From Anaerolinea sp. (lineage in GTDB: Bacteria > Chloroflexota > Anaerolineae > Aggregatilineales > Aggregatilineaceae): a DNA stretch of 56,423 nucleotides. Positions 2,283 through 54,022 of this stretch are shown here, in pieces. Where the stretch lies: assembly GCA_020725705.1 (NCBI GenBank), contig DYEN01000577.1:1-56423 (forward strand), read 5' to 3'. The position numbers and the translations under genes are program-made. Position 1 is the stretch's first letter. Every line of letters starts with the position of its first letter. Under the pieces are notes generated by a model. That model was not told the origin of the DNA and did no database searches. It saw only the letters and a program-made list of their open reading frames with translations.

Positions 2283-2296
2283 GCCAGGCGGGCCGA

Positions 2297-4138: not shown

Positions 4139-4198
4139 GGCGGGACGGCCTCACCGGACCGCCCCGCCGCAGATTGTAGGTGAATCGACGACAAACGC

Positions 4199-5017: not shown

Positions 5018-5130
5018 GAGGACCTCGCGCCCAGATGGGGCGCTGCTTCACTTTTCATTATACGCGCGAAAAAGGGCGCCCCGCAGCCGGCCTGGGAGCG
5101 CCCCCACTTGACTTCACTTGATGGCCGGAT

Positions 5131-6823: not shown

Positions 6824-6972
6824 GGTTTTGCCTTTTGACAACAACCGCCGCCAGCCGGCGGCCATGCCAACGAGAGCAAGCACCTCGCCATACTCCAGTG
6901 TACGCGCAGTCAGGCGCTCGCGACCCCCTAATAATTAGGGTATCCTAATAATATGATTTGGCAAGGCTATAT

Positions 6973-12996: not shown

Positions 12997-14058
12997 CTAG
13001 CCTTCCAGGGTGTAAGTGAGGGTCCCGCTGACCGCGCCCAGCGGCAAGCTGACCGCCGCACCGGCGTGGCGCTGGAAGTTCAGCCCGCTCACCGTCACCG
13101 TGATCGACCACTCGCCCGGCTCCAGCGCGACGTTGGCGCCGTAATGATAGCCCATAACCGGCGAGAGAACGGGCTGAAGCGCGACCTCAAACGCCTGGTG
13201 ATCGCCATGCGCGCCGCTGCCCGCCGGCTCGAAGCGCAGCGTCACGTCGGCGCCGAGCAGCTTTTCCTCGAAGTTGACCGCGTGATCGGTGACATCAACC
13301 GCAAAATAGCGCACGCCCTCACCGTGCTCGTGCGCGGAAAGCTCCTCGACCGGCTGAGCCGCGCCGTCCCGCACCTCGTACAGCGTTTCGGCGTGGTGCG
13401 CGTGAAGCACGACGTGCACGCCCTGCCGCGTGAACTCGCCCACCGTCTGCATCCTCATCGCGGTGTTTTCGACGTTGCCTTCGGCGTCAAGCCGAAAGCC
13501 CCCTTCCCACTCGACCGGCTCCAGCCAGCGATCATGCGTGCCTTCCACCCGCAGCGCCTGAGCCGGGCTGATGGTGACGTGCCACTCGTAGCGCGCGTCC
13601 GGCGCCAGCGTGTAGTTGTCGCCGAAGTGATAGCCGTGACCGGGGGCGTACATGGCCGGGGCCATGTCGTCGATGACGACCTCGCCCGTCTCGGCGTTGC
13701 GCACGACCAGGTGTACCGTCACGGGCAGACGCTCGCCCAGCGCCAGCTCCGCGTCGAGCACATCGACGGTGACATGCTTCATGCTGTCGTCAATCTCGCC
13801 AACCTGCTGCAGCCGCCCGTCCACCACGTCATACAGCGTCGCGGCAGGCGTCACGTTAAAGAGAAGCTGCATCCCGGCGCGGTTTTCGCGGGCCAGCGCC
13901 AGCCCGTGCGTGTGAGACGCGTAGGCGGGCTGTGCGGCGGAGCAGTCGCAGTCCGCCTGAGACTCGTCCGGCCGGAAGATCAGCAGCGCCGCGATCAAGA
14001 CCGGGGCCAGCACAAGCGCGAAAATCAGCGGAAAGATGAAAACCCTCTTGTCTTGCAT
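12997..14058 (-). CDS. Membrane-anchored extracytoplasmic protein with two tandem P19/FetP/Tp34-like (Fe/Cu-binding) domains
   Basis: N-terminal TM anchor (VFIFPLIFALVLAPVLIAALLIF). There are two internal repeats. Each ends in a GPHYGANI-like motif (GHGYHFGDNYTL; VMGYHYGANVAL), preceded by V(D)V.D(A/H) strands. This matches my recollection of Campylobacter P19. The protein is His-rich. Confidence 0.55.
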   Translation of the reverse strand: MQDKRVFIFPLIFALVLAPVLIAALLIFRPDESQADCDCSAAQPAYASHTHGLALARENRAGMQLLFNVTPAATLYDVVDGRLQQVGEIDDSMKHVTVDVLDAELALGERLPVTVHLVVRNAETGEVVIDDMAPAMYAPGHGYHFGDNYTLAPDARYEWHVTISPAQALRVEGTHDRWLEPVEWEGGFRLDAEGNVENTAMRMQTVGEFTRQGVHVVLHAHHAETLYEVRDGAAQPVEELSAHEHGEGVRYFAVDVTDHAVNFEEKLLGADVTLRFEPAGSGAHGDHQAFEVALQPVLSPVMGYHYGANVALEPGEWSITVTVSGLNFQRHAGAAVSLPLGAVSGTLTYTLEG

Positions 14059-14175
14059 ACCAGCGTTCAACCCTTTCACGCACAACAGTCATGAAACACC
14101 ACGCCGTACGGCGTCGCCCGGCCCAACGGTTGGATGCGCAGGGAAGAAGGAACGTCGCGGGCGGGTTGGCGCGCC

Positions 14176-14481
14176 CTATTCGGGGCGAGGCAACGCCTCG
14201 ATCTGCCCGATCAGCGCGAAGTCGCGCTCGGTGATACCCCCGGCGGAATGGGTCATCACGCGGACCGTCAGGTGTTTGTAGTCGTGAAGATGCAGGTCCG
14301 GGTGATGATCGAGGCTCTCGGCCAGGTGCGCGATCGCATTGAGAAAGAGGATCGCGCGGCTGAAGTTCTTGAAGACGAACTCCGCGTAAAGCTGCCCGTC
14401 GTCACCCAACTGCCACGCCGGATAGCTGCCAAGCCGCTCGCGGACAGCCGCTTCACTCATGGGCTGCGCTTGCTCTGGCAT
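14176..14481 (-). CDS. phhB: Pterin-4-alpha-carbinolamine dehydratase
   Basis: 101 aa. NAIAHLAESLDHHPDLHL.Y..LTVRVMTHSAGGITERD is the canonical PCD/DCoH core. Confidence 0.88.
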   Translation of the reverse strand: MPEQAQPMSEAAVRERLGSYPAWQLGDDGQLYAEFVFKNFSRAILFLNAIAHLAESLDHHPDLHLHDYKHLTVRVMTHSAGGITERDFALIGQIEALPRPE

Positions 14482-14758
14482 GGATGTCTCTCCTGCACAA
14501 CGTGTCGTGGTTTATTCCAGCCGCCCCTTACCGCCCGCCTGCAATCCCGGCGCGCGAGTGGGCAATTGCGTGCAGATTATACGATAAATTAAAAGGAACT
14601 CATAAGAAACTTGCGTGTTTCTAAAGCACTGCTAATGCGGAGCGTGTAACCTGTCATCCGAACACGGCATCTGATAATACGTATGCGCGTTGCAACTCTT
14701 CACTACCGCAGCGATGCAGACACCGGACGGGTTTGAACAACGGAACGAGGATGAGAGC

Positions 14759-15418
14759 ATGGCGAACAATGGGAAGCTGGCCGGTACGGGAAATGGGAAC
14801 GGCCACGTGCAGCAGGCTGTCGAGCGTCTGGCTGCCCAGACCTTTCACGCGCTGGACTCGCGCGCGGCGATTGAAGAAGCGGTCAAGCTGATCTTGATCA
14901 ATGTGGGCGAGGACCCCAACCGCGACGGGCTGTTGCGCACGCCGCAGCGTGTCGCGCGCATGTATGAAGAGCTGCTCGAAGGCTATCACCAGGATTTGCA
15001 AGCCGTCCTCAACGACGCGCTGTTCGATGTGGAATATGGCGAGGGCGAGATGGTGGTTGTGGCCGATATCGAGTACCAGTCGCTGTGCGAGCATCATATG
15101 CTGCCGTTTGTGGGCAAAGCGCACGTTGCCTACATCCCGCGCCACAAGATCGTCGGCCTCAGCAAGATCCCGCGCATCGTGGATATGTTCGCCCGGCGTC
15201 TGCAGGTGCAGGAGCGCATGACCAACGAGATCGCGGACGCGCTTGAGGAAGTGCTCGATCCCGTCGGCGTGATAGTCGTCGTCGAAGGCCAGCATAGCTG
15301 CGCGTCATTGCGCGGCGTCAAGAAGCACGGCGTCAACATGGTCACCACCGCCAAGCGCGGCGAGTTCCGCACCAACCGCGACCTGCGCGACGAGTTCTAC
15401 CGGCTGATCGGGCGCTAG
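14759..15418 (+). CDS. folE: GTP cyclohydrolase I (FolE)
   Basis: [59 protein letters not shown]. Start chosen at the ATG at 14759 with GAGGA upstream; the ORF is open from 14690. Confidence 0.93.
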
Positions 15419-15453
15419 ACCGGCGCCTGACTCGCACTTCAAAGGACGCGCGT

Positions 15454-16221
15454 ATGGACCTGCACGAGAAGGTTGTCCTGGTGACCGGCGGCGCGCACCG
15501 CGTCGGCAAAGCGATTGCCCTTGCCTTCGCCGGGGCGGGCGCGCACGTCGTGATCCACTACGGCTCGTCGGAAGATGCCGCGCACGCCACCGCCCGCGAG
15601 ATCAAATCGCTCGGCGTGCAGGCGCTCGTCGTCCAGGCGGACCTGGCGGACCCGGCGGCCATCGCGGACCTGTTCGAGGCGGTGCGCGATCGCTTCGGGC
15701 GGCTGGATGTGCTGGTCAACAGCGCCGCGAACTTCATCAAACAGCCATTCGACGAAGTCACGCTGGACGCCTGGAAAGATGCCATGCAGGTCAACCTGCG
15801 CGCGCCGTTTTTCTGCACGCAGCATGCCGCCCGCCTGATGCGCGCCACGCCCCGCCCTGCCGACCAGCCCGCCGCCATCATCAACATCGGCGACCTGGCG
15901 GGGGTGCACCCCTGGCGCGATTTCGTGCAGCACGGCGTCGCCAAGGCCGGGCTGCTTCACCTCACCAAGATCAGCGCGCGCGAACTGGGGCCGGACGTGC
16001 GCGTCAACGCCATCGTGCCCGGCGCCATCCTGCCCCCGGCCTCGATCGCGCCCGACAGCGAGCGCTGGCAGGCGATGGGCGAAAGCGTTCCGCTGCGCCG
16101 CACGGGCCACCCCCGCTACGTGGCGCAGACCGCTATCTTTCTGGCGCAAAACGACTACATTACCGGCGCGATCATCCCGGTCGACGGAGGTGAGCACCTG
16201 ATCGGCATCGGCACGCACTAG
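15454..16221 (+). CDS. Short-chain dehydrogenase/reductase, pteridine-reductase (FolM/PTR1)-like by context
   Basis: VLVTGGAHRVGKAIALAFAGAGAHVVIHYGSS cofactor-binding turn, NSAA and SDR-fold motifs. Lies 35 nt downstream of folE. Confidence 0.8.
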   Translation: MDLHEKVVLVTGGAHRVGKAIALAFAGAGAHVVIHYGSSEDAAHATAREIKSLGVQALVVQADLADPAAIADLFEAVRDRFGRLDVLVNSAANFIKQPFDEVTLDAWKDAMQVNLRAPFFCTQHAARLMRATPRPADQPAAIINIGDLAGVHPWRDFVQHGVAKAGLLHLTKISARELGPDVRVNAIVPGAILPPASIAPDSERWQAMGESVPLRRTGHPRYVAQTAIFLAQNDYITGAIIPVDGGEHLIGIGTH

Positions 16222-20069: not shown

Positions 20070-20343
20070 GGGCTGAGACGACCAAACGCCTGGACAGCAC
20101 TCTGACCCGGGTCGGGGTCGGCGTCGCGGCGAACACGCTCCACACGTCAGTGATGGAGCCGGGCACGTGCCGCCTGGGGCCGCGGGAACAGAGCGGCCAG
20201 AGGCCATCATCAACTCACCCAACCGGATCGCCGGGGAAGATGTAAGAGGCGATCCGGAAATGTTACCTGCCTGTGTCAGGCATCGGCAACGCTGTGACCG
20301 TTGGAGCAGATCGCGATTGCCTCTTGCAGCCTCGCCAAACCGT

Positions 20344-20997
20344 CTAGTCGATCAATCCCCGTTGCAGGGCATATCGTATGAGTTCGCTGCGGGAGTTAAG
20401 GTTTAATTTGCGCATGACATTGCCGCGATGAAAGTCAACCGTTTTAGGTGTAATAAACAATGCTTCTGCAACTTGCTGGTAGGTATTGCCGCGCGCCAAC
20501 ATGACCAATACTTCGCGCTCGCGCTCAGTTAACGTGTCCAGCAAGTCAGTCGGTGTCTGGATGTCACGCCGCACGCCGTCCACTAGGACGCCGGTAATCC
20601 TTGGATCAAAGAAAGTGTCGCCCGCAGCAACAGCGCGAATCGCTGAAAGCAATTCATCCCCGTCGGCCCGCTTGAGGACATATCCGGAAGCACCAAGCTT
20701 GAGTGACGGAATGATATATTCCTTATTCTCGTGTTGCGTCAAGATCAAGACTCGAATTTCCGGGAAGGCATCCTTGATGGCCCGCGTTGCTGCCAGTCCA
20801 TCCATGCCCGGCATACCGATATCCATCAGAACGACATCGGGCTGTAGCTCGCGCACCCGTGCCAATGCTTCCTGGCCGTCGCCCGCATCACCGACAACCT
20901 CAAAATCGGGTTGCACGTCGAGCAGGGCGCGAATACCAGCGCGCAAGACGGAGTGATCGTCGACGATCAATATTCGGATTTTTGAGAACACCGGCAT
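20344..20997 (-). CDS. Response regulator, NarL/LuxR (FixJ) family
   Basis: REC domain ([13 protein letters not shown] ... [13 protein letters not shown] ... ILTQH) plus LuxR-type HTH ([43 protein letters not shown]). Start taken at [10 protein letters not shown]. Confidence 0.92.
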
Positions 20998-21054
20998 TGC
21001 TCGTTCAGCCCTCAGAAAGCTTTTGTATGCCAGATCGTACCCCAACCAAGGAAA

Positions 21055-23382
21055 TCAGGGCGAAGTCTCTTCCGGATGGTAAGATCGCACGTCGTGCTCT
21101 ATGGCGAGCGGGATCTCTGCCCGCACGCGGGTGCCGCGGCCCAACTGTGACTCGAGATGAAAGCTCCCAGAGAGCAGATCGGCGCGTTCTTTGATTCCTA
21201 ACAAACCCCAACCGCGCCCTTCTCTTTCACGGATCTCCAGGGCGTTCGCGAGGTCGAACCCTTTGCCGTTGTCGTGGATCTCCAACATGACTCGATCGCT
21301 ATCCGCCCGCATCTTGATCTTGACTTCGCTCGCTTCAGCATATTTGGAGATGTTCGTCAACGCTTCCTGCGCGATTCGAAAGAGCGCGGTTTCGATGTCC
21401 GGCGCGAACCGCACCTTATCATCTCCCTCGATTTCCCATATTACCTTAATACCGAGCTTTTCCAGGCGAGATTCTGCATACCAGCGAATGGCCGGAAGCA
21501 ACCCCAAATCGTCCAGCAGGCTCGGACGCAGATCGTAAATAACCGTCTGCAATTCTCGCACAGCGTCACTGGTGGAGACGCGCAGCCGCTTGAGGATTTC
21601 CCCGGCATCCATAGAAGGATCCGTCAGCGCCAGTTCAGCCGTTTTCAGGCCGAAGATCAGGGCATTAAGGGATTGACCGAACTCATCATGGAGTTCGCGC
21701 GCGATACGCTTCCGCTCCTCCTCTTGTGCGCGGATCGCTTTTGCCAGCAGTTGCGCCCGCAGGCGCTCTTTGTCTTTCAGATCGTTCCACAGCCGGGCAT
21801 TCTCCAGCGCGACACCCAGCTGAGAGCCAATCATCACCATAAGGCGGAAGTTCTCCTCGGTGAAAAATGAAGGGCTATAGGCGGCCACATTCAAGGCACC
21901 GATTACCCGACCACCCTCAATGAGGGGAACGCTGGCATGACAATGCACCGGTTTGCCGCTGCTGCTGTGAGAATGGGACAAGACGCAGTTGTGTCCCGGC
22001 GTTACGATGATCGGGCTTTTCGTGCGAAGCACAAGCCCGCAATCGCACTCAGGAAAGCGCACACTGAGCTGCACAAGGGGTTCGGCAAAGCCGGCTACGG
22101 CGGCCAGATAGGGCGGTGAGTTCTCACGCGCAATGGCGATCCACCCTGCCGGCAGGTCGAGCACTGCCAGCACCTGTTCAAGGGCTTCTTGCAGCATATG
22201 TTCAATGTTGCTGCTGCGTCGGTTCATAATCGCAGATATAGCGTTCAGTGTTGCCAGTTCGCGATTCTGGCGCTGGATCTCGGCTTCTTTTGCCTTGCGT
22301 TCAGTGATATCCCGGGTGAACCAGGCTAATGCACGCTTCCCTTCATATTGAATGATAGTGCCGCTTGTCTCCACAATAACCGCACGGCGATCCCGCGTCA
22401 GGAGCTGCATTTCATGCCTTAGCGCGGTGCTCTTGCCATCCCGGATAGTCTGCCATGCCTCGTACGCGGCGTTTAGGCTGTTGGGATGGATAACCTCTGC
22501 CGCGTTGAGGTTCAGCAGATGCGTGCGCTCGTAACCGGTGAGGCGGCAAAACTCATCGTTAACGAACAAGAAGCTGCCCTCATTAACCGCCTCATCGCAA
22601 ATCAAGGCGATGCCTTCGCCAACCTGCCCTGCAGCCTTGAGCAGCGCACGATACCCTGCCCGCGAGTCTTGAAGCTGGGTAATCGTTCCCTGCAGGTCTA
22701 CCGCCATGGCGTTGAACGCTCGCGCGAGATCGCCGATTTCGTCTCGATTATTGATGGAAATCGTCTGGGTCAAATCTCCGGAGCCGAAACGCTGAACCCC
22801 TTCGGTCAAGCGGGAGAGAGGACGCGTGACGATGCGTGCAAATACAATCGCAGCCACAACGCCAGCCATCATCCCAACCGCTGTCAGGCCGAAAATGATC
22901 CAGGTCAGATCTTGAAGGACATCAGTTATGCCGGTTTGACTGAAGCCAAGATGGAGTTCGATATCGAGTTTGTCGGTCAGACGCCAACCGAAATCCTGAA
23001 TGACGCCTGCTTCGGTTCTCAACAACGTTTGTTGTGTAAGCTGCCCGGCAGGCATAGCGTTTGCGGCCAGCAGGTCCACGGGAAACCCATTAGCAAAGGT
23101 GTGGACGACAACACGTCCCGGAGCGCCAATTGCATAGGCATAGATAATGTTGGGATTAGACCCCTTTAGATATTGGAGAAACTCCTGAACCGCTACCATA
23201 TCGCCTTCTAGCAAGGCGTTGGCGATGGCATTTCCGGATATTTGCACCAGGGCTGAGCCATGAGCATCCAGCTCGCTGCTCAATTTACTGGCAACGACCG
23301 TGTTGATCGCCCCGATTGTCAGCACGCCCAGGCTGATGACAATCAGAGAGGTGAAGATAATGATCTTGGTATGTAGTTTCAT
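21055..23382 (-). CDS. Sensor histidine kinase (TM, periplasmic domain, TM, HAMP, PAS, GAF, HisKA_3, HATPase_c)
   Basis: 775 aa. Two TM helices flank a periplasmic segment of about 135 aa. HAMP (LSRLTEGVQRFGSGDLT...IGDLARAFNAMA). PAS ending in FTRDITERK. A GAF-like block. H-box RIARELHDEFGQSLN (NarX/HisKA_3 type). G-boxes HDNGKGF and GWGLLGIKER. ATGA overlap with the upstream binding-protein gene. Confidence 0.92.
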   Translation of the reverse strand: MKLHTKIIIFTSLIVISLGVLTIGAINTVVASKLSSELDAHGSALVQISGNAIANALLEGDMVAVQEFLQYLKGSNPNIIYAYAIGAPGRVVVHTFANGFPVDLLAANAMPAGQLTQQTLLRTEAGVIQDFGWRLTDKLDIELHLGFSQTGITDVLQDLTWIIFGLTAVGMMAGVVAAIVFARIVTRPLSRLTEGVQRFGSGDLTQTISINNRDEIGDLARAFNAMAVDLQGTITQLQDSRAGYRALLKAAGQVGEGIALICDEAVNEGSFLFVNDEFCRLTGYERTHLLNLNAAEVIHPNSLNAAYEAWQTIRDGKSTALRHEMQLLTRDRRAVIVETSGTIIQYEGKRALAWFTRDITERKAKEAEIQRQNRELATLNAISAIMNRRSSNIEHMLQEALEQVLAVLDLPAGWIAIARENSPPYLAAVAGFAEPLVQLSVRFPECDCGLVLRTKSPIIVTPGHNCVLSHSHSSSGKPVHCHASVPLIEGGRVIGALNVAAYSPSFFTEENFRLMVMIGSQLGVALENARLWNDLKDKERLRAQLLAKAIRAQEEERKRIARELHDEFGQSLNALIFGLKTAELALTDPSMDAGEILKRLRVSTSDAVRELQTVIYDLRPSLLDDLGLLPAIRWYAESRLEKLGIKVIWEIEGDDKVRFAPDIETALFRIAQEALTNISKYAEASEVKIKMRADSDRVMLEIHDNGKGFDLANALEIREREGRGWGLLGIKERADLLSGSFHLESQLGRGTRVRAEIPLAIEHDVRSYHPEETSP

Positions 23383-24374
23383 GGCTGCAGCAGACCATAT
23401 ATCCTGGCCCAGTGGCGCAGGTCATCGTAGTCACTAGCCACGACTAACCCAAAACCATTGGGCATTTCGGTGCGCTCCCAATGATATAGCTCCAACCCAT
23501 TCAGGCGCTTGGGGTTGAAAGCAAGCAATGCCTGCTGCACTGCGTCGGCCACTTCGGCAGGAACATGAGCGCCGGCGATGATTCCGCTAGACGGAAACGG
23601 GTCTGATTGGGCGATGATGCGGACAAGCCCCTGTTCTGCCAGAGTTCTTCCTAAAGTATCCTGCACTGCACCGGCATCGACTCGGCCGCTAATCACCGCG
23701 TTAGAGGTCTCAAAATGCGACCTCGTGAACTCGTGAGACTGCAAATCGCCAAGCTCAATGCCCGCCTGGGACATCATAATTCGGGGAATGAGATATCCCT
23801 GAGTGGAGTTGCTGGCCCCAAAAGCAAAGGTATGGCCTGCCAGATCGCGTAATGATTTCAGGTCGCTGTCAGGTCGGGAGACAATCAGCGATCGATACGA
23901 GCCTTCACCGTTTGAATTCAACCCACAGACCAGCATGGTGGCCGCCGAAACTTCGCGTACCTGAAGGTATGTAAGCGTGCCGGCTATGGCGAAATCTACC
24001 TGTTCCGCCAGGATCTCGCGCACCAGACTTCCAGCCTTGGGGGTAACGTGCAGCCTGAACTTGTAACCCGTTTCATTTTCAAGATATTGGAGCAGCCCGG
24101 AGTAGATGCGTACATCCTCTTTTGGCTCAAGTCGCCGGTCAAAGCCGAAGCTGTAAACCGGTTCAGATTCCACTGTAGCGGGCCAGCGGACTTCCCCTCG
24201 AATCAGGTTGTTCTCTAATGACACATTGACAGGCTCTTTGTCGGTATTCAGGCACGCAGAACCGGCCAGGAGGATGCCAAGGCCGAACATCAGGCCCGCT
24301 GCAACCCGGAGCTTGTTTCCTGGCTGAATACCCGCCGAAATGCTGTACAACCATGAAAACTTTAATGACATCAT
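23379..24374 (-). CDS. PhnD-like (phosphonate/phosphite ABC-type) periplasmic substrate-binding protein; no transporter partner, coupled to the kinase
   Basis: 331 aa. N-terminal signal/anchor ending LLAGSAC. Type-2 PBP core (YSFGFD..., FAIAGTLTYLQ, STQGYLIPR) typical of the PhnD family. No ABC permease or ATPase lies next to it. Its stop overlaps the kinase start. Confidence 0.8.
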   Translation of the reverse strand: MMSLKFSWLYSISAGIQPGNKLRVAAGLMFGLGILLAGSACLNTDKEPVNVSLENNLIRGEVRWPATVESEPVYSFGFDRRLEPKEDVRIYSGLLQYLENETGYKFRLHVTPKAGSLVREILAEQVDFAIAGTLTYLQVREVSAATMLVCGLNSNGEGSYRSLIVSRPDSDLKSLRDLAGHTFAFGASNSTQGYLIPRIMMSQAGIELGDLQSHEFTRSHFETSNAVISGRVDAGAVQDTLGRTLAEQGLVRIIAQSDPFPSSGIIAGAHVPAEVADAVQQALLAFNPKRLNGLELYHWERTEMPNGFGLVVASDYDDLRHWARIYGLLQP

Positions 24375-24873
24375 ATCCCCACAAGGCGCCTACGCCTTCT
24401 AGAGCGTGTTAAGAACTGAACGAGAAACACGCACCGGCCTCGAGTTTTCGTGCAGGGGCGACGCTTGCATTGCGCGCGGCCAACCCATCTCGCGTGTAAC
24501 CCAGGCGGAGCAAGGCGCCCCCTCGCGCGATACCGGGTCTCCGATCCGGTCTGTAAGTGTTCATAACCGTCTTCTAGGACAAGGCACGCGATTTTTGGCG
24601 AGTATGCCACAAGCCATCCTTTCATCAAAACAACTGCGGACAATTCCTAGGAAATTCCCCAGGTACAACCCCGGTTCCTTCCCCAGTTAACCTGACTATC
24701 TCTGCCGCCTACAATCGAAGATGTATCAGTGTGCGTATAGCCCTGTTTCCCCTGCGAGAAACCAAGGCAACAAGGAGTGTGACTTATGTCTGGAGAATCC
24801 CTTGACGCAGGCTTCATGCCATGAGCGTGCCTTCGAGGTATGTGCTGTGGCAAGAACAAAGGAGAAATTAGAC
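24375..24873. promoter_or_regulatory. Divergent control region between the sensor operon and the molybdoenzyme operon
   Basis: 499-bp non-coding gap between divergently oriented genes. It contains a perfect 10-bp palindrome TTCCTAGGAA (24644..24653) and a 12-codon mini-ORF with a strong AAGGAG site (24786..24824). Confidence 0.5.
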
Positions 24874-25785
24874 ATGGCCAAAGATGACGATCTGTTGAGA
24901 GAAGCGCTCGCTGGTGACGAGACCAGCCGCCGTTCCTTTCTGGGCAAGTTTGCAGGCGGGGTATTTGCCGGCCTGGTGGCGCCCGCGCTGATAGGTGAGG
25001 TGCGCGCCGCTCACGCCGCCCCTGACACCCAGGAACAGCCAGACCTTGCGCCGCTTCCTGACCTGCCCGAGGCGATCGAAGGAGAGCACCCGGTTGTGCG
25101 CATGATGGAAGACCTGCGCCGCGCTTTGCAGAAGCCGATGGCCGAGCGTAAGTGGGCGATGGTGATCGATCTGCGCAAGTGCACCGGTTGCAACGGCTGC
25201 AATATCAGCTGTGTAACCGAGAACAAGCTGCCGCCTGGGGTCACGTACCGTCCGGTAATGACCGAAACCCAGGGAACCTATCCGCACGTGTCGCGCCGGT
25301 TTGTTCCACGCCCCTGCCTGCAGTGTGAAGATCCCCCCTGTGTGCCTGTCTGCCCGGTCAGGGCAACGTACAAACGCGCGGACGGGATCACAGTCATTGA
25401 CTACGAACGGTGCATTGGCTGCCGGTATTGCATGACAGCCTGCCCCTACTCGGCCCGGTACTTCGATTTCGGTCGGTTCTACGGGGACAATGAAGGCGGC
25501 GAGCGCCAGCCCTATGAGCTGCTACCCACACCGGAATATCGCAAGAACTACGACCGGGCCGAAGGCGGCTCCCCGATTGGAAACGTGCGCAAGTGTCATT
25601 TCTGTATTCATCGCATCGAGCACGGTGAACTGCCAGCCTGCGTGCTTAGCTGCATGGGCCGGGCAACCTACTTTGGCGATATGAACGATCCTGCCAGTTT
25701 GGTCTCGGAACTTATCGCTCAACCCAATGTCATGCGACTCAAGGAAGAGTTGGGAACCGATCCCAAAGTCTTCTATCTTGTCTAG
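24874..25785 (+). CDS. Tat-exported 4x[4Fe-4S] ferredoxin-type electron-transfer subunit (NrfC/TtrB/PsrB-like)
   Basis: Twin-arginine motif [12 protein letters not shown]. Four Cys clusters: [60 protein letters not shown] at 24874 preceded by AAAGGAGAA. Confidence 0.9.
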
Positions 25786-25796
25786 GAGATACAACC

Positions 25797-28628
25797 ATGA
25801 CCCAACAACAGGGACCGACCTTAACGCGGCGTAACTTCCTCAAAGTGGGCGGGTTGACGACCGTCAGCGGCCTGGCAGCGTACAGCGGACTTGGCACCGG
25901 ATTCCGGCGGATCAGCGCCCAGGAAGCCCAGAACCGCCTGCAGAGCACGATCGTCTATACCGCCTGTGTTATGTGCCCGGCTGAATGTGCCCTGGCCGTG
26001 CGGGTGGAAAACGGTGTCGCCTCAGCTATCTATGGGAACAATCATGCACCCCTGAACTCTGGCGTGCTGTGCGCAAAAGGGGCGTCCGGTCTCCAGATGG
26101 CCTACAACGCGAATCGGGTCAAATACCCCATGATTCGCGTCGGCGAGCGTGGCGAAGGCAAATTCCGTCGCGCTTCGTGGGACGAGGCACTGGATTACAT
26201 CGCCGACAAGTTGATCCAGATTAAGCAGGAAAGCGGGCCAGAAGCGGTCATCATGGACGCCGGTGACGTCACCGACCGTGACCCGTACTACTATCTCTTC
26301 CGGGCCTTTGGCACGCCGCACACTGTGGAACACGGCTCCATCTGCGACACACCGCGCCGCCATGGCCCCAAGCTGATGTTTGGCGGCAAGCGTGTTGAAC
26401 CAGACATCATGCGTCCGGTGCTGGTGCGCCAGCCTGACGGCAGCTTGAAAAACGACTACCGCTATCGCACACGGCTAATCGTCTACGCCGGTTGGAACCC
26501 ATTCACGGCTACCCGCATCGTCTATGAGTCACGCGGGACAGTAGAGGCGAAACTGGCCGGCGCTCGCATCGTGGTCATCGACCCCGCTTTGTCCAACACG
26601 GCGACCAAAGCCGACCAGTGGATCCCGATCCGCCCCGGTACTGACCCGGACCTGTTTGCGGCCGTGCTGCGCTACATTCTGGAAAATCATCGCGACGACA
26701 ATCCTTTCCGGAAATACATCGATTGGTCCTTCCTGGAGTACAGCCAGGGATGGGAAGAATTCGAGGCGGACTTTAAGAGCTGGTGGAACAAGGAAGACCC
26801 CATCAACGGCCTGAACTACTTCACCCTGGAATGGGCGGAACAACGCACCGGCATTGACGCGCAGACAATCGCCGAACTGGCGCATACCTTCGGTATCACC
26901 AAACCCGCGGCCTGGGTGTGGGGAATGAATGGCATCGGCCACCACTACAACGGGTATGTCGCTTCGATCATCGGCACGGCCCTGAATGTTATAACCGGCA
27001 ATATGGAAATCCCCGGTGGCGCGATCGACACCGAAATTGTCAAGAGCAGCAAGGGCGGCAACGCCGGTGGTGGTCAGTTTAACCAGCGCGAAGTCACACG
27101 CCGTATCAACGGCCGCACCGTTACCGGCAAGCAGGAACAACTGCATATGGACTGGTACGGCGATTGGCCCGCGAGCTGGGACGATGTGGTGGGTGATTAT
27201 CCGCGCCGTTTTAACGAAGGGGTTACCCTGCGTTATGGGCCGTTCCGCGGGCACCAGTATCCCATCCGTGCCTTCTTCCTGCGCACCGGCAACCCGGTGA
27301 TCACTGCCAGCAACACCGAAACCTGGGTCGAGGCGTTAACCCGGAAGAACGGCGACAACTACAACGTGGACCTGGTTGTCTACATCGACACTCCCTTCCT
27401 GGAGACCGGTATGTACGCAGATGTTGTGCTGCCGGAATCCAGCTACCTGGAGCGAATGAGCCTCTCCGACATCTACCCCAGCCACCCGCTCATCTACCTG
27501 CGCGACTTCGTGATTGACAAGATGTACGAATCCAAGTCGCAGTATGACATCATGATCGCTCTGGCTAAGAAACTGCAGGAGAAGGGTGATCCGGACATCA
27601 ATCCCGCAGATTTCTGGGAGAAATATCCCACAGAAGAGGACTTCTGGAATGAGGCTCTAAAGGTCTCGCCCGGACGGGCCAACTGCGGACAGCCGCTGCC
27701 TTATCCTGACTATCCGGTCAATTACAAACTGCTCGGCACACCCGAATCCCTTGAAGCAGGCCGGGTCGAAGTTGACGACGAAAAGAAGGAAATCCGAGGC
27801 GAACCGGTGACGGTGCAATGGCTGCGCGATCACTATGGTGTCGCTGTGTGGCCGATGAGCTGGTTTCGCTTCCATGAAGGCGGCGTTCTGCAAACAGACA
27901 GCAAGAAGGTCGAGTTTGTTTGGGACTTCGAAGTGGAAGCGGACGATGCGGTGCAGCGCAAGGGTCGGTATGCCAAGTACAACAAGCTCATTGAGGAAGC
28001 CAACGAGACCCCGCCCAGCCTGCGCAGGCTCGGTTGGGAGAAATACCCCTCGAGCTTCTATTGGTTCGAGACGCTCTGGAACCCCTATACCAACCCGGAC
28101 TATGCCCAGTACAAAGACGAGTATCCGTTCCTGCTGGTCTCCGGACGTGTCCATCACGCCATGTCTGGCACACAGATGGTGGACTGGCTGGGTCGCCTTC
28201 CCACCGAAGACCTGTGGATGCCCCTGAACGACGAGCGCGTGGTGGATGAGATCATTGTCGGGCCGGATGGGCCTGCACCCTCTGGTCGCCGTGTGCGCGT
28301 GGCAAAGGGAACGTGGTGCATCGGCGTGATCCAGATGAATGCAGCCGATGGTGCCCGGCTTGGGCTTGAAACAGGCGACCTGGTCGAGCTTTCCACACCG
28401 CTGGGGCACACCACGCGCGGGAAAGTCTATCTGGTAGAGACCATACGGCCTGGCGTGCTACGCGTTCCGTTTGGTGGCGGTGGGCGCTTCAGCCCGGGTT
28501 TGGGCAAGACGTATGACTTCCGCGACGAGTCGCCCAACCACAATGCCCTCGTGGATCCTGAATGCCTGTCACCAATCATGGGACAACCAGCCTATTGCGA
28601 CATGATCGTCAAGGTGACCAAGGTATGA
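25797..28628 (+). CDS. Tat-exported molybdopterin (bis-MGD) oxidoreductase catalytic subunit, DMSO-reductase superfamily (Psr/Phs/Ttr/Arr clade); substrate unknown
   Basis: 943 aa. Tat motif LTRRNFLKVGG. N-terminal FS0 cluster motif C-x2-C-x3-C-x27-C (CVMCPAEC...LCAKG). Probable Mo-ligand Cys in EHGSICDTPRRHG. Large MGD-binding domains. Confidence 0.9.
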   Translation: MTQQQGPTLTRRNFLKVGGLTTVSGLAAYSGLGTGFRRISAQEAQNRLQSTIVYTACVMCPAECALAVRVENGVASAIYGNNHAPLNSGVLCAKGASGLQMAYNANRVKYPMIRVGERGEGKFRRASWDEALDYIADKLIQIKQESGPEAVIMDAGDVTDRDPYYYLFRAFGTPHTVEHGSICDTPRRHGPKLMFGGKRVEPDIMRPVLVRQPDGSLKNDYRYRTRLIVYAGWNPFTATRIVYESRGTVEAKLAGARIVVIDPALSNTATKADQWIPIRPGTDPDLFAAVLRYILENHRDDNPFRKYIDWSFLEYSQGWEEFEADFKSWWNKEDPINGLNYFTLEWAEQRTGIDAQTIAELAHTFGITKPAAWVWGMNGIGHHYNGYVASIIGTALNVITGNMEIPGGAIDTEIVKSSKGGNAGGGQFNQREVTRRINGRTVTGKQEQLHMDWYGDWPASWDDVVGDYPRRFNEGVTLRYGPFRGHQYPIRAFFLRTGNPVITASNTETWVEALTRKNGDNYNVDLVVYIDTPFLETGMYADVVLPESSYLERMSLSDIYPSHPLIYLRDFVIDKMYESKSQYDIMIALAKKLQEKGDPDINPADFWEKYPTEEDFWNEALKVSPGRANCGQPLPYPDYPVNYKLLGTPESLEAGRVEVDDEKKEIRGEPVTVQWLRDHYGVAVWPMSWFRFHEGGVLQTDSKKVEFVWDFEVEADDAVQRKGRYAKYNKLIEEANETPPSLRRLGWEKYPSSFYWFETLWNPYTNPDYAQYKDEYPFLLVSGRVHHAMSGTQMVDWLGRLPTEDLWMPLNDERVVDEIIVGPDGPAPSGRRVRVAKGTWCIGVIQMNAADGARLGLETGDLVELSTPLGHTTRGKVYLVETIRPGVLRVPFGGGGRFSPGLGKTYDFRDESPNHNALVDPECLSPIMGQPAYCDMIVKVTKV

Positions 28629-29269
28629 CGGTGACAGAACAAACACTGGCTGAGCGAGCAGGGCTTTACAGCCTGCTGCACGCCTTCTACACCTATCCTT
28701 TGACAGAGTCTTTGCTTGCTGACGTAGCTGGCCTGTCTCTGCCGGCTGAGTCGCCGTTGTTCGACGGCCTGGTGCAAATGCAAACCGGTCAGCTAAGCGC
28801 TGAGACGCTGAACGTGGAGATGACTCGATTGCTGGAAGGCCCTGGCCGCACACCGGCTCCACCTTACGCGTCCTACTATCTCAACGACAGGCAGTTGATG
28901 GGGCCGCCCGCTACGATGGCACGTCAGACTTACCTGGAATGGCAAATCTACCCGGAAGGCGACCAGTACATACCGGATGATCATCTGGCTCTGGAACTGG
29001 GCTTTATGGCCTATTTGGCCCAACTGGCCCTGTCATCAGAGCCGGACCGGAACAAAGCACTGGTGGCGAGCTACCGATTTCTGGTCGACCAGATTGTACC
29101 CTGGTTGCCTCACTTCAGCAGGGCGTTGACCCAAGCAACCGAGGAACCATTCTTTGTCGGGTTGGTACGCTTCACGCAAGCAGCCATTCAGTCGGACCTT
29201 GAGTGGCTGGAATCGTACCTGCGTGCAGATCCGCGCCAGGCGCCATCCGTCCAAACGCCAGGCGTTTAG
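28625..29269 (+). CDS. TorD/DmsD-family redox-enzyme maturation chaperone
   Basis: 214 aa. LYSLLHAFYTYPL ... PPYASYYL ... PDDHLALELGFMAYL is typical of TorD-like chaperones. ATGA overlap with the catalytic-subunit stop. Confidence 0.8.
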   Translation: MTVTEQTLAERAGLYSLLHAFYTYPLTESLLADVAGLSLPAESPLFDGLVQMQTGQLSAETLNVEMTRLLEGPGRTPAPPYASYYLNDRQLMGPPATMARQTYLEWQIYPEGDQYIPDDHLALELGFMAYLAQLALSSEPDRNKALVASYRFLVDQIVPWLPHFSRALTQATEEPFFVGLVRFTQAAIQSDLEWLESYLRADPRQAPSVQTPGV

Positions 29270-29279
29270 GAGGAAGAAA

Positions 29280-30473
29280 ATGGCTCAAACAACTGCAATA
29301 CGACCCGCAGCACCTGAGCGTCGCTTCAGTTTTCAACTGACAGATCTATTCTGGCTGTTGGGAATTGTCCTGCTGGCTGCCGGTGCATGGGGGATGTGGC
29401 AACGGCTGAGCGAAGGACTTGCCCCTACAGCCCTCAACAGCTATGTGCCTTGGGGTCTGTGGGTTGGCTTCTACGACTATCTGGTGTGGTTGGAAGTCGG
29501 CAGCCTGCTGGTCTTCACCACCGTTGTGTATCTGGTAGGCTACAAGCCTCTGGCCGCACTCAAGCCACAGATCTACTTCACGGGTTTCGTGGCTCTGTTC
29601 ATGGCACTGCTTCTTGTCCTGCTCGACTTAGGGCGGCCGACGCGCTTCTGGCACGTCTATCTGTATCCGGACTTTGGCTCCATGATCACCTGGATGGTCT
29701 GGCTGCATACCGCCTATTTGGTCATCCTGTTGGCCAAACTTCTGCTGGTGACCAACAGAGTGTCGGTTGGGCCAGAACGGAGAGACTGGCTTCTACAAAA
29801 GCTAGCCTATCTGAGTCTGCCTATGGGCCTGGCTTTGATCATCGTCAGCGGCTCGATCTTCGGCGTGGTCACCGCGCGGCCCCTGTGGAACACCTCATCA
29901 CTTCCCTTGATGTTCCTGCTCTCGTCCCTGGCTGCAGGAAGCGCGCTCATCACACTCTTGGCCGTGTTGTTCTGGCCGAATCGGCAAACAGATGAGTATC
30001 GTCAGGTGATGAAGCTGCTTGCCCGGATGACAGCCTGGCTGCTGCTGGCCGGAGCCTTTGCGGCAGGTATCATCGGGTTGACGTTCCTGTATCAGGGCAG
30101 TCCGGCGCGAGCAGAAGCGGTGAATCTGGTTCTGACAGGGCCTTACTGGTGGAGCTTCTGGATCGTCCACTTGTTAATCGGTGTGCTGATACCCCTGCTG
30201 GTCCTCTTCACCCAGGCTCACAGGCCAGCGCTAGTCGGCTTTGCCAGCCTGCTGGCTGTAGTCACGTTTGTGGCAGTGACCCTCAACATCGTGATCCCGG
30301 CACTGGCTACGCCGGAGCTGGAAGGTCTGGTGCTGGCCTATGTGGATCCGAAGATGAGCTTTGATTACGTACCCAATCTGACAGAGTGGATGTTAATTTC
30401 GTTCATTTTTGGGTTGGGTGGTGTTGTGTATGGTCTGGGTCTTCGCTGGCTACCGGTAAAACCGGCGGCCTAG
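29280..30473 (+). CDS. NrfD/PsrC-family polytopic quinol-interacting membrane anchor
   Basis: 397 aa with about 8-10 hydrophobic helices. NrfD-like N-terminal pattern (WGLWVGFYDYLVWLEVGS). AGGAGG lies upstream of the ATG at 29280. Last gene of the operon. Confidence 0.8.
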   Translation: MAQTTAIRPAAPERRFSFQLTDLFWLLGIVLLAAGAWGMWQRLSEGLAPTALNSYVPWGLWVGFYDYLVWLEVGSLLVFTTVVYLVGYKPLAALKPQIYFTGFVALFMALLLVLLDLGRPTRFWHVYLYPDFGSMITWMVWLHTAYLVILLAKLLLVTNRVSVGPERRDWLLQKLAYLSLPMGLALIIVSGSIFGVVTARPLWNTSSLPLMFLLSSLAAGSALITLLAVLFWPNRQTDEYRQVMKLLARMTAWLLLAGAFAAGIIGLTFLYQGSPARAEAVNLVLTGPYWWSFWIVHLLIGVLIPLLVLFTQAHRPALVGFASLLAVVTFVAVTLNIVIPALATPELEGLVLAYVDPKMSFDYVPNLTEWMLISFIFGLGGVVYGLGLRWLPVKPAA

Positions 30474-30534
30474 GACCCCGGGGCCATCGCCGCAATAGGC
30501 CTATGTAGGCCCGACAGATTGAAGTTGGCGACCC

Positions 30535-30576
30535 GGGCCGGCTGGCTATCAGGCCTACCCTGTAACCAGCCGGCCC
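30535..30576 (+). terminator. Stem-loop downstream of the NrfD-like gene (possible terminator, no U-tract)
   Basis: 11-bp perfect stem, GGGCCGGCTGG (30535..30545) and CCAGCCGGCCC (30566..30576), with a 20-nt loop. Confidence 0.35.
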
Positions 30577-31049
30577 ACCGGCTTACGCAGCTATTTTCGG
30601 GAACACTTCCGTGACAGCCCCGATTGCACGCTTAGCAATCGGGCGCAAGCGAGCAATACTGCTGGTTGGGCAAACGTCTGTATGAATGAGCCTGCAGGCG
30701 AGCCTCTGTTGCCTCAAGATGCAAGCACAACTGAAAAGCCGCCGAACAAGAGCACCCGAAGCCGAGAACAAACCCCGCTACCCAAGCATCGTCCCTGCGA
30801 GACCATCTAACACCGCCGCTTCCCATCAAGGGTATAAGACGCTCTAGATTCGCCACCTTTATACGAGCAGCGATGTAGAGTCGTTCCTGAACAGCTTTAG
30901 GAGTTATGCTATGCTGTGTGACTTTATTGTCCACACGCGGAGGATCGCCTACGCCCTGTGCATCCCAAGGAATGACTCCCCTACACCTTATGTCACTCGA
31001 CGCGCCAGCATTTGACTGGCCATAATGTTCGATGGCCGGAGAGGTCTTC

Positions 31050-31895
31050 TCAGCCCTTGATCCCGGTCATCGAGATGCCCTCGATGAAGTAGCGCTGGAG
31101 CATATAGAAGACGACAATCGGCGGCATGGCAGCGAGCACCGCACCGGCCATCGCCTGACCGTACGCCTGCGCACCTTGCGCCTGGCCGGGCCGCAGGCTC
31201 ATGAACTGCGCGATCCCGACCGGTAGCGTGCGCGAAGCGTCGGTGCGGGTGGCGATCAGGGGCCAGAAGAAGCTGTTCCAGGTGGAAAGAAACGTGACGA
31301 TGGCGACCGCCGTCAGTGCGGGCTTGGCCAGCGGCAGCACCACCGACCACCAGATGCGCAGCGTACTCGCGCCGTCCACACGGGCGGCGTCTTCCAGCTC
31401 ATAGGGGATGTTCAGGAAGAACTGCCGCATCAAAAAGACGCCGGTCACATTGGCCCCCACCGGCAGGATCAGCGCCAGGTAGGTGTCCGTCAGGTTCAAC
31501 TCGGAGAACATTAGAAACAGCGGCACAACCGTGATCTGCATCGGCACGAACAGCATCGACAGGATTACGGCGAAGATCACACCCCGCCCGGCGAACCGCA
31601 TCCGCGCCAGCGCGTACCCGGCCAGCGAATCGAGTAGCAGCACCAGCAGTGTTGCGCCAGTGGAGACGATCAGGCTGTTGAGCGTCCAGCGCAGGATATT
31701 GAAGCGGTCAAAGACGCGCTGGTAGTTGTCCAGCGTGAAGGTGCGTGGAATCCAGCGCACATCGATCGTTGCGATCTCGGTTTCCGGCTTAAACGAGGTC
31801 GAGAGCATCCAAGCGATCGGCGCCAGCATCACCACGACCAGCGCCACCAGCAGCGCGTACCAGATCAGTTTGCCGAGCAGCCGCATCGAGATCAT
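31050..31895 (-). CDS. Carbohydrate ABC transporter permease (MalG/BPD_transp_1 type)
   Basis: 281 aa, 6 TM. EAA loop [28 protein letters not shown]. 4-nt overlap with the upstream permease gene. Confidence 0.9.
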
Positions 31896-32848
31896 GACGC
31901 CACCCCGCGAATGCCTCGCCGGTACAGGTACGCCTGCATCAGTGCGAACACGATCAGAATTCCGAACAGCAGCGTCGCCACCGCCGCGCCGTAGCCCATG
32001 CGCAGGTTCTGGAAGGCGGTGGTGTAGATGTACTGCACCAGCGTCAGGGTCGAGGTGCCCGGCCCGCCGGAAGTCATGACATACACCTGGTCAAAAACCT
32101 GAAACGAGTTGATCAGCGTCAGCATCAAGACAACGAACGTCGTCGGAGCGAGCAGCGGCAGAGTAATGTGCCGCAGCAGGTGTAGGGGGCCGGCGCCGTC
32201 GATGCGCGCCGCCTCGTACAGCTCGGCAGGGATGTCTTGCAGGCCTGCCAAAAACAGGACCATGCCGTAGCCCACCGTCCACCAAACCGTGGTGAGAATG
32301 ATGCCATAGAGCGCCACATCCTGGCTGACCAGCCACGGCAGCCCGCCGATGCCCAGTTTGTTTAGATAGGCGTTCAGCAGCCCGAAGTCTTTTTCAAGAA
32401 TCCACGTCCACAGCACACCAACCACAGTAGACATCAGGACATAGGGCGTGAACGCGGCGACCCGGCCCAGCGCGCGGCCTTTGTGCGGCTGGTTGAGGAA
32501 GATCGCCAGCGCCAGACTGAGCACCACTAGTAGGGGAACCGTCAGACCGGTGAAGAAAGCCGTGTTTTTGAGCGCCGCTTCCAGGCGTGGGTCGATGCGC
32601 ATCAGCTCGTAATTGGCGGTGCCGACCCACTCCGGCGAGCCGACAATCGACCACCGGGTAAACGACATCCCCAGCCCAAAGAGCGACGGCCCCAGCCGGA
32701 ACGTCAGAAAGGTCAACAGGTAGGGCAGCAGAAAGAGGTAGGGCGTCCACCGGGAATACAGGTGGCCCGTGCCGCTCGCGGTGCTGGCGACGGCACTCGT
32801 ACGGGGACGTGGCAGAACGCGCATAACAGCTCCTGCGATCACCTGCAA
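31892..32848 (-). CDS. Carbohydrate ABC transporter permease (MalF type)
   Basis: EAA loop [26 protein letters not shown]; polytopic. The start may be the internal Met at 32824. Confidence 0.9.
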
Positions 32849-32923
32849 TCAATGATGAAGCGGGATGGAGTGGCCAGGCGAACAGGCCACTCCATCACCC
32901 GCCGAATTGCGGCTCGTTTCGAG

Positions 32924-50803: not shown

Positions 50804-50992
50804 CGTTGTGGGCGACGATCATTTCGCAACGAGGCGCACCTTTTTATATTGTTTATCTCATGACAGGTTTGTGTGTATCGGTCCGCATTAATGGAATTCT
50901 TATAGAATATTTGCTATTATTTGAGTTGAAACTTCGCCCGACCAACGTTGCTCTGGCACAGAGCGTGAGTGCGCACAGGAGGATGAACAACC

Positions 50993-51265: not shown

Positions 51266-51400
51266 TCGGAACGCCCCCCCGACCGAGACCTGACCGCCCG
51301 CCTCGCACCAGGCGGGCCTCTTTTTTTTCGCGTGGCAGCGCCGGCCCCCATCGGCGATAATCCACCAGAGAACCCACGTGGCAGAGCAAGGAGCAGAGCG

Positions 51401-52384: not shown

Positions 52385-52517
52385 GCGGCCCGCACCCCCG
52401 CGCCCGGTCCATCCCGGCGCGAAAGTGGCGCAGACCCCCCGCCCTGTGCTATAAGAAACGGGCGTGGGGGGATCGGGAGCCATTGCCTACCACGGCAGGA
52501 GCACACAGAGGACGCGC

Positions 52518-54018: not shown

Positions 54019-54022
54019 GCGA

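Follow-up and report, generated by a model that had tools for sequence, protein, structure and literature searches.

A putative three-component oxyanion sensor and a divergent molybdoenzyme operon on a horizontally transferred cassette in Anaerolinea sp.

A sensor trio and its probable target operon

Contig DYEN01000577.1 of the Anaerolinea sp. assembly GCA_020725705.1 (positions 1 to 56,423, the whole of which was analyzed and is called the window below) carries adjacent genes for a PhnD-fold binding protein, a sensor histidine kinase and a NarL/FixJ-type response regulator, and these are transcribed divergently from a molybdoenzyme operon (Table 1). We propose that the three genes encode a three-component system of the AioXSR/ArrXSR type (binding protein X, kinase S and regulator R) and that this system and its target operon share a 10.3-kb horizontally transferred cassette, a reading to which we give a probability of about 0.75. 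The trio most likely turns on the neighboring molybdoenzyme, and its ligand is probably that enzyme's substrate or product.

In the proposed mechanism the binding protein, a lipoprotein, would capture an oxyanion outside the cytoplasmic membrane and, once closed and liganded, would dock on the single-Cache domain of the kinase. The signal would pass through HAMP to the HisKA_3 core, where the PAS domain and the cysteine-bearing GAF domain may add an internal input (redox state or a thiol-binding metalloid). The phosphorylated NarL-type regulator would then bind four 12-nt repeats just 5′ of the −35 element of the enzyme promoter and thereby activate the iron-sulfur (FeS)-Mo-TorD-NrfD operon.

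A preliminary description of this region had taken the binding protein for a sensor partner and not a transport component, and the divergent molybdoenzyme operon for the target. The former is supported by linkage across rearrangements, by 4-nt stop/start overlaps at 13 of 21 binding protein-sensor junctions, by a shared Cache domain and by an operator-like array, and the latter by linkage in 13 loci and by conservation of that array at the enzyme promoter. The overlap of the binding-protein stop with the kinase start (ATGA at 23382..23379) is as described, and Pfam confirms that a NarL-type regulator follows and that the set diverges from a molybdoenzyme operon. The reported lack of an ATP-binding cassette (ABC) permease or ATPase partner is borne out within the 56-kb window by tblastn and Pfam. 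Two statements need adjustment. The kinase does have its own periplasmic domain together with PAS and GAF modules, but the outside domain, about 125 amino acids (aa) long, is a divergent sCache domain. The binding protein is indeed the product of a separate PF12974 gene, but it is probably not free: its signal peptide ends in a lipobox whose Cys41 is nearly invariant among 47 homologs, which argues for a membrane-tethered lipoprotein and not a free periplasmic protein.

Table 1 Features of the cassette in the 56,423-nt window
Feature	Coordinates	Strand	Evidence and remarks
Cassette, 10.3 kb, two divergent transcription units	20279..30591		blastn vs L001 and GC content
R component: NarL/FixJ-type response regulator	20344..20997	−	REC E=7e-31, GerE helix-turn-helix E=1e-21 (Pfam)
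S component: sensor histidine kinase	21055..23382	−	775 aa; TM-sCache-TM-HAMP-PAS-GAF-HisKA_3-HATPase_c (Pfam, transmembrane (TM) prediction)
X component: PhnD-fold (PF12974) substrate-binding protein, probable lipoprotein	23379..24374	−	331 aa; Pfam Phosphonate-bd E=1.1e-53
Candidate regulator-binding array: four direct repeats, 12-nt period	24646..24687	+	Cores CTAGG, CCAGG, CCGGT, CCAGT
Sigma-70-like promoter toward enzyme operon	24687..24715	+	TTAACC-17-TACAAT; abuts last repeat
FeS subunit B, four-cluster, predicted Tat-exported (twin-arginine translocation)	24874..25785	+	303 aa; Fer4_11 and related Pfam families; SRRSFLGKF; AAGGAG ribosome-binding site
Catalytic Mo/W-bisPGD (molybdopterin guanine dinucleotide) subunit A (MoA)	25797..28628	+	943 aa; Pfam Molybdopterin, Molybdop_Fe4S4, Molydop_binding
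TorD/NarJ-type maturation chaperone D	28625..29269	+	PF02613 E=2e-21; ATGA overlap with MoA stop
NrfD/PsrC-type membrane quinol-interacting subunit C	29280..30473	+	PF03916 E=1.6e-28; multiple TM segments; AGGAGG before ATG 29280
GC-rich hairpin I20 at right end of cassette	30535..30576	+	14-nt arms, 93% complementary, 14-nt loop; no T-run

Conservation of the trio beside the enzyme

A scan limited to one genome per species returned 17 loci with related binding proteins. In 13 distinct loci (the window, L001-L004, L024, L018, L020, L023, L026 and L028-L030) the trio has one and the same ~940-aa enzyme as its neighbor, and such recurrence puts the arrangement far beyond chance. In four Chloroflexota loci, whose binding proteins are 92, 62, 51 and 51% identical to that of the window, the trio adjoins the FeS-Mo-TorD-NrfD set. 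The relative orientation varies, being divergent in L001, convergent in L002 and co-directional in L003 and L004; the complete genome of Thermoflexus hugenholtzii (CP076326) has the divergent arrangement. Three more homologs, chosen by binding-protein identity alone (50-54%), have the full arrangement in every case, and of the Chloroflexota/Firmicutes-type binding proteins picked via the binding protein itself, all eight are enzyme-linked. When the enzyme is taken as the starting point, the trio precedes it in Desulfitobacterium hafniense, Moorella humiferrea, a Symbiobacteriaceae contig and L026. Orthologous trios, as judged by these comparisons, are thus already present in the cultured organisms D. 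hafniense and T. hugenholtzii. The Rokubacteria locus follows the Aio/Arx design, the partners of the enzyme being a binding protein, an sCache-HAMP-HisKA kinase and a sigma-54 regulator, and the kinase-coupled binding protein there (L021) has a different pocket.

Several of these loci have peculiarities of their own. The Rokubacteria locus encodes, right after NrfD, a second PF12974 protein (L021 14780..15571) that has most of the window-type pocket and no adjacent kinase. In M. humiferrea (L020 3062..8208) the kinase is split, with the HAMP part in the opposite orientation to the HisKA_3/HATPase part and regulator, and the parts lie between two 415-aa DDE transposase genes; this suggests that an insertion sequence-mediated inversion inactivated the sensor. 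The Sulfuricella enzyme operon (L022 9921..16909) has only a GerE protein and an HTH_8 remnant in place of the trio, and its neighbors, a mer operon (MerR, MerT, MerP-like HMA and MerA-like) and a ptxABC-ptxD-like phosphite set, suggest a resistance or mobile island. On an apparently archaeal contig (L027 8020..14611, with Ribosomal_S25 and TYW2 nearby) the order FeS-NrfD-Mo955-TorD is followed by an SBF/Acr3-like transporter gene, with no trio. The D. hafniense cluster (L018 1..1794 and 13806..15683) has a Ttr-like enzyme and the chaperone of that enzyme (Dhaf_1197-1198 by gene order) on one side and arsC-arsR-acr3 on the other; arrABC, as published for this organism, lies ~20 genes further on, so that three related molybdoenzymes occupy one arsenic island.

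The binding protein and Cache sensor as a unit

The binding-protein gene lies away from the enzyme in 13 loci of Proteobacteria and Desulfobacterota (42-50% identity), and there it is always followed by a gene for a membrane sensor with a shared N-terminal domain, the first ~200-400 residues of which align to the window kinase. The remaining parts of these sensors vary and include HisKA, hybrid kinases and, in L009, Cache-HAMP followed by an MCP signaling domain, and the downstream partners include REC-EAL and REC-GGDEF-EAL proteins and further kinases. Such varied outputs behind one pair indicate a portable input module, which by its gene context appears to serve cyclic di-GMP (c-di-GMP) and chemotaxis outputs as well. 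Examples among the L005-L017 pairs wired to REC-EAL, REC-GGDEF-EAL, hybrid kinases or MCP are L006 13875..15068, L010 13741..15534 and L009 12098..12718.

L021 and the second L023 kinase exceed the cut-off of Pfam sCache_3_2, three others fall just short of it, and the window kinase gives no match. A profile of 16 window-type sensor domains nevertheless aligns to an sCache-positive profile in hhalign with a probability of 99.3% (E=1.3e-20), and by this profile homology the outside domain of the window kinase is a divergent single-Cache domain. The review of Matilla et al. (2021) lists AioS as "sCache-like" and AioX as PF12974. The AioX/AioS architecture itself consists of a PF12974 protein paired with an sCache-like kinase, so in this class the expected docking partner is an outside domain of the kinase's own.

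The kinase and regulator

The kinase TM segments span residues 2-32 and 158-187 and enclose the outside domain. Its H-box, RIARELHDE, is invariant in nine orthologs, and both REC and GerE are intact in the regulator, which is 69-77% identical in L002-L004 and most likely starts at ATG 20997 and not at TTG 21045. Neither protein reaches the cut-off of a named NCBIfam equivalog (NarL, MctR, NarX and others).

The GAF domain of the kinase contains a C-x-C motif and a third cysteine ~25 residues on, and all three are present in seven of the nine orthologs. This cysteine cluster (FPECDCG...GHNC...VHCH, kinase residues ~425-525, window 21800..22110) could be an Fe-S, redox-active or As(III)/Sb(III) thiol-binding site. 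PAS and GAF are both missing from the L026 and L030 kinases, which suggests that they provide an optional second, cytoplasmic input.

The binding protein

A tblastn search of the window with the PtxA/PtxB/PtxC set of L022 found no match to a PhnE-type permease and only two weak ATPase matches (2297..4138 and 5927..6883), which Pfam identifies as a fused ABC_membrane exporter and an ABC-2 exporter. The sole importer in the window (31050..34231) has its own 435-aa sugar-type binding protein, and an importer permease or ATPase for the PF12974 protein is absent within the window.

The AlphaFold2 (AF2) model of the binding protein (pLDDT 88) is predicted to have a closed oxyanion-binding fold. The structural comparison proposed in the preliminary description places it nearest liganded PtxB (TM-score 0.89), ArrX (0.87) and AioX (0.80), with HtxB also matched; the AioX/ArrX pocket cysteine is replaced by Gly132. 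Identity to ArrX is ~20%. When the family profile is compared with ArrX and PtxB, Tyr160, Ser190, Ser219-His220 and Asp239 are conserved, and Asp79, Arg81 and Gln192 are family-specific invariant residues. The full pocket signature is D79 R81 G132 Y160 S190 T191 Q192 S219 H220 Q238 D239, and E-M303-304 is also present in the clade. Invariant in the family, and a possible docking surface, are E303-M304-P305 of the binding protein and Y81, H94 and G99-F100-P101 of the kinase.

The cysteine is the criterion by which Badilla 2018 separates AioX, ArxX and ArrX from PhnD. In our pocket table it is Gly throughout the window clade and Cys in ArrX and L023b, the second Symbiobacteriaceae binding protein. 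The neighbor-joining tree unites enzyme-linked and proteobacterial binding proteins in one signature-bearing clade, within which bootstraps are 15-37, so that only coarse statements are safe. L023b groups with the crystallized ArrX (bootstrap 83), and it is accompanied by an sCache-HAMP-HisKA_3 kinase and a GerE regulator 5′ of an FeS-NrfD-Mo operon. The window protein belongs to a separate clade without the AioX/ArrX cysteine, and this is one of the new elements of the system.

The molybdoenzyme operon

The operon is predicted to encode a respiratory molybdoenzyme that is exported via Tat and linked to quinol. For the FeS gene the most likely start is 24874 (Met52 of a longer open reading frame (ORF)), and for TorD and NrfD the most likely starts are 28625 and 29280. 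The long FeS ORF call begins 153 nt 5′ of the likely start; the length of this extension (24721..24873), which falls within the predicted leader, is not kept in homologs (300-303 aa).

MoA has a Tat motif (TRRNFLK) and a C-x2-C-x3-C-x27-C cluster motif. In alignment with ArrA (6cz7) the context of the Mo-ligand cysteine is kept (HGSIC vs HSSVC), and the arsenate-binding GRY motif of ArrA (LLRGRYS) aligns to IMDAGDV, so (R/K)GRY is absent. No NCBIfam equivalog cut-off is reached (PhsA NF012032 247 vs 694, ArrA NF041714 167 vs 1600, TtrA 88.8 vs 1750), PhsA being the best-scoring named family. The gene order of the enzyme family is B-A-D-C or B-C-A-D, in contrast to A-B-C with a ~760-aa catalytic subunit in PhsA/PsrA. 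Its members are 55-98% identical and come from Chloroflexota, Rokubacteria, Nitrospirota-type lineages, Proteobacteria, Firmicutes and an archaeal contig. By these measures the enzyme belongs to an uncharacterized clade that is neither ArrA, PhsA nor TtrA, and this too is a new element. It is not mentioned in the published genome analysis of T. hugenholtzii.

Other assignments were considered. NaoA was ruled out; it is NapA-like and carries a Rieske subunit. The B-C-A order of the Duval "Unk" clade fits, but the members listed are other taxa, with D. hafniense under ArrA only. The Mo805 protein of the Symbiobacteriaceae locus L023 was also rejected as an ArrA because it is without the GRY motif, and only the binding protein of that locus can be called ArrX-like.

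Promoter and candidate operator

The four-repeat array between the two transcription units is unique in the window (0.00 expected from 100 shuffles); Tandem Repeats Finder reports no tandem repeat. Five Chloroflexota promoters have eight 9-mers in common (one mismatch allowed) compared with 0.6 in shuffles, and in the window these 9-mers make up the four repeats of the array, at an exact 12-nt period. Chains of at least four window-derived cores (CYRGK, in 11-13-nt steps) occur in the homologous promoter of L001, L003, L004 and L024; elsewhere there are two such chains in 1.1 Mb, and shuffled promoters have 0.01. L026 has a three-core array, and partial arrays are also present in L028 and L029.

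The TTAACC-17-TACAAT element is the only promoter-like site in 24300..24900, and a TACAAT/TATAAT box is visible in L001, L002, L028 and L029. Together the array and promoter imply a leader of ~150 nt before the FeS start, and the array would cover about −35 to −76 of the enzyme-operon promoter, a position that fits activation by the regulator.

The cassette

A blastn comparison with Thermoflexus sp. L001 (a metagenome-assembled genome from African mines) gives ~91% identity over exactly 20279..30591 and nothing in the flanks. The GC content of this block is 0.55-0.58 compared with 0.63-0.68 around it (~0.57 vs ~0.66). The shared block consists of the two transcription units and the terminal hairpin, a possible terminator that was not picked up in the terminator scan. 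The cassette ends show neither convincing terminal repeats nor an integrase, the window has no tRNA or other RNA genes, and no plasmid-borne homolog was found. The whole 10.3-kb unit is a low-GC, horizontally transferred cassette, which is a further new element.

Comparison with known systems

AioXSR of Rhizobium sp. NT-26 and Agrobacterium tumefaciens and ArxXSR of Alkalilimnicola ehrlichii resemble the window system in combining a PF12974 binding protein with a two-TM sCache-like kinase, a regulator and an adjacent dimethyl sulfoxide (DMSO)-reductase-family enzyme. They differ from it in that their kinases are HisKA and their regulators sigma-54 AtoC/NtrC-type, whereas the window has HisKA_3 with PAS and GAF and a REC-GerE regulator. 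Their pocket cysteine is an invariant glycine in the window protein, and the window enzyme is neither Aio nor Arx. The sigma-54 AtoC type is not universal among such systems, the ArrR proteins of Firmicutes and Chrysiogenetes not being of that type (Badilla 2018). ArrXSR is similar in the fold of its binding protein (Chrysiogenes arsenatis ArrX, PDB 6x6b) and in the conserved pocket Tyr, Ser, Ser-His and Asp; it differs in that the window protein is placed in another clade and the window enzyme falls far below the ArrA cut-off. An "ArrTSR" of Melioribacter roseus lies upstream of a Ttr-like enzyme, beside ars genes. The window system would be expected to work like AioXSR/ArrXSR, yet outside the AioX subfamily, whose defining cysteine it lacks.

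The preliminary description had regarded the system as a new mixture of two designs, a free binding protein as in Aio/Arx and a HisKA_3 kinase with a NarL-type regulator as in Ttr. This does not stand: AioX/AioS is already a PF12974 protein with an sCache-like kinase, and the HisKA_3 and GerE output type already appears, to judge from its domains, with the ArrX-like L023b. The set of systems compared there was also incomplete, as it missed ArrX.

Two enteric systems are also comparable. In TorTSR of Escherichia coli a non-transport binding protein activates a kinase in response to trimethylamine N-oxide (TMAO), and the output is a periplasmic molybdoenzyme operon; the differences are that TorT comes from another family of binding proteins, that TorS is a hybrid phosphorelay kinase and that TorR is of the OmpR type. 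In TtrSR of Salmonella, which responds to tetrathionate, a LuxR/NarL-type regulator controls a B-C-A type molybdoenzyme operon, and the preliminary description names a PhnD-like sensing fold in TtrS. The binding domain of TtrS is fused to the kinase, whereas the window binding protein is a separate, translationally coupled gene product; the window regulator reaches 71.2 bits where the TtrR cut-off is 290, and the enzyme is similarly far from TtrA.

The gene order X-S-R-B-A-D is seen in L003, L004, L021, L028 and L029. The antimonate reductase genes of Geobacter sp. SVR are reportedly ordered anrXSRBAD, which would match. Geobacter sp. SVR and Desulfuribacillus are absent among the 120 best enzyme-family members (at least 58% identity, in a search seeded with the Sulfuricella member). 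AnrA, the antimonate reductase of Geobacter sp. SVR (Kambara et al. 2024) and Desulfuribacillus stibiiarsenatis (Abin and Hollibaugh 2019), is reported to be an Sb(V) reductase of the DMSO-reductase family.

The closest published counterpart is Dhaf_1206-1209 of D. hafniense DCB-2, which includes a true enzyme orthologue (ACL19266, 59% identical) with the same trio 5′; it differs in its gene order, B-C-A-D, and in its location inside an ars island. We equate ACL19266 with Dhaf_1208 because ACL19268 is a thioredoxin-type arsenate reductase and the gene order matches Dhaf_1206-1212. Kim et al. (2012) describe Dhaf_1206-1209 as putative phsABC and chaperone, the PhsA label coming from a similarity of 2e-47 and from growth stimulation by thiosulfate, not from enzyme data.

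Ligand and alternative explanations

Arsenic or antimony oxyanions and sulfur oxyanions such as thiosulfate seem to us the leading ligand candidates, equally plausible and each short of even odds; selenium or another oxyanion is a weaker candidate, and a phosphorus oxyanion is improbable. The metalloid hint is that the cluster is flanked by ars genes (ArsR, LMWPc-type ArsC, SBF/Acr3-like, ArsP, ArsA and ArsD) in four loci, namely those of D. hafniense, Moorella, Symbiobacteriaceae and the archaeal contig; the window itself contains no arsenic-resistance genes. The sulfur hint is the best family score of PhsA together with a pocket common to Chromatiales, Thiodiazotropha, Desulfobacterales and Magnetococcales.

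A more specific proposal, which we offer tentatively, is that the binding protein and its Cache partner are an unrecognized, widespread oxyanion-input module with a fixed pocket (Asp79, Arg81 and Gln192, and no Cys) whose ligand is not arsenite, arsenate or phosphonate. In Chloroflexota and Firmicutes this module would have been captured to control a mobile enzyme clade whose substrate is the ligand, and the three-cysteine GAF domain would be a second, metalloid or redox input. The ligand could then be, for example, thiosulfate, antimonate or a thio-arsenic species.

A number of observations weigh against a dedicated sensor of the enzyme's substrate. The orphan status of the binding protein holds for the 56-kb window, and ABC partners may exist elsewhere in the genome. 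The AioX/ArxX/ArrX cysteine (AioX Cys106) is absent, ArrX "afiCtY" aligning to "avvGtlsY" with its invariant Gly132, and by sequence score the protein is nearer to the transport proteins PtxB/PhnD (1.7e-19) than to ArrX (8e-11) or AioX. Three loci, L022, L025 and L027, have the enzyme but no trio. The full repeat array is confined to the Chloroflexota lineage, and its pattern was derived post hoc. ACL19266 was barely detected (two peptides) in a six-condition D. hafniense proteome whose conditions excluded As, Sb and thiosulfate. Finally, the identical pocket signature is found in pairs that are not beside the enzyme and feed c-di-GMP or chemotaxis outputs, so the ligand may be a common environmental anion and not the enzyme's specific substrate.

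The score and the glycine, which is as in transport proteins, would suit an ordinary phosphonate/phosphite-type transport component with ABC partners elsewhere and an incidental kinase neighbor, and homologs are annotated as phosphonate transport proteins in several sources. We nevertheless consider this highly improbable: in all of the ~30 homologs examined the next gene encodes a Cache-type sensor and in most cases overlaps by 4 nt, and none has an adjacent permease gene; the NCBIfam PhnD and family cut-offs are missed (TIGR03431 100.7 vs 261.1; TIGR01098 103.4 vs 112.05); and the true ptxABC-type binding protein of L022 groups with PtxB, outside the window clade. The shared pocket raises a different prospect, that the system is real but reports a general anion (phosphate, phosphite or sulfate status) and that the enzyme is one of many outputs. 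The Proteobacteria and Desulfobacterota pairs with REC-EAL, REC-GGDEF-EAL, hybrid-kinase or MCP outputs speak for it, as does the weak binding of phosphate by ArrX (Badilla 2018). It is unlikely, however, in view of the Chloroflexota/Firmicutes trio, which has stayed with a single enzyme across three kinds of rearrangement and travels with it as a cassette, and of the Rokubacteria, where the last gene of the enzyme operon encodes a window-type binding protein although the kinase is coupled to a different one; known XSR systems, moreover, sense the substrate of the adjacent enzyme.

The decisive input might instead be cytoplasmic, with the PAS/Cys-GAF part sensing oxygen or redox state (through Fe-S or a disulfide) or As(III)/Sb(III) through three thiolates, and with the binding protein only modulating the response. 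The conserved GAF cysteines speak for this; NreB-type HisKA_3 kinases sense oxygen via a cysteine-ligated Fe-S cluster, ArsR binds As(III) with three cysteines, and anaerobic respiratory operons are usually also redox-controlled. But the L026 and L030 kinases have dispensed with PAS and GAF while keeping the binding protein, Cache domain and enzyme, which makes the outside module the invariant part, and D. hafniense keeps just two of the three GAF cysteines; we therefore regard a primarily cytoplasmic signal as quite unlikely. The reading that we prefer remains a three-component system that responds, through its extracytoplasmic module, to a ligand connected with the neighboring enzyme.

Other features of the window

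A cytochrome P450 gene lies beside the fused ABC exporter and ABC-2 exporter set at 924..6883, which is the source of the only ABC ATPase matches noted above. At the other end of the window, 50900..56419 contains three large minus-strand ORFs (527, 619 and 453 aa) with no Pfam or PHROG match. The GC skew there is strongly negative (−0.35 at 54-56 kb), and a neighboring 504-aa protein matches phage endolysin and LysM-motif families.

Significance

The enzyme clade is an orphan across many phyla and is found in cultured Thermoflexus and Desulfitobacterium. The main value of the trio is practical, as it could lead directly to the substrate of a respiratory enzyme that is widespread yet orphan: known XSR binding proteins bind the substrate of the neighboring enzyme, and so a binding screen of the soluble ~290-aa binding protein could name the substrate of a widespread anaerobic respiration. 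Sulfur-cycling bacteria appear to use the module for c-di-GMP and chemotaxis outputs too, which would give its ligand a relevance wider than this one operon. Should that ligand be arsenic or antimony, metalloid cycling in hot springs and the deep subsurface would have a new marker in the cassette, and if it is thiosulfate, the "PhsA" annotation in D. hafniense would gain its first real support. Should the binding protein and Cache pair prove to be an unrecognized input module, its ligand would deorphanize both a sensor family and a respiratory enzyme.

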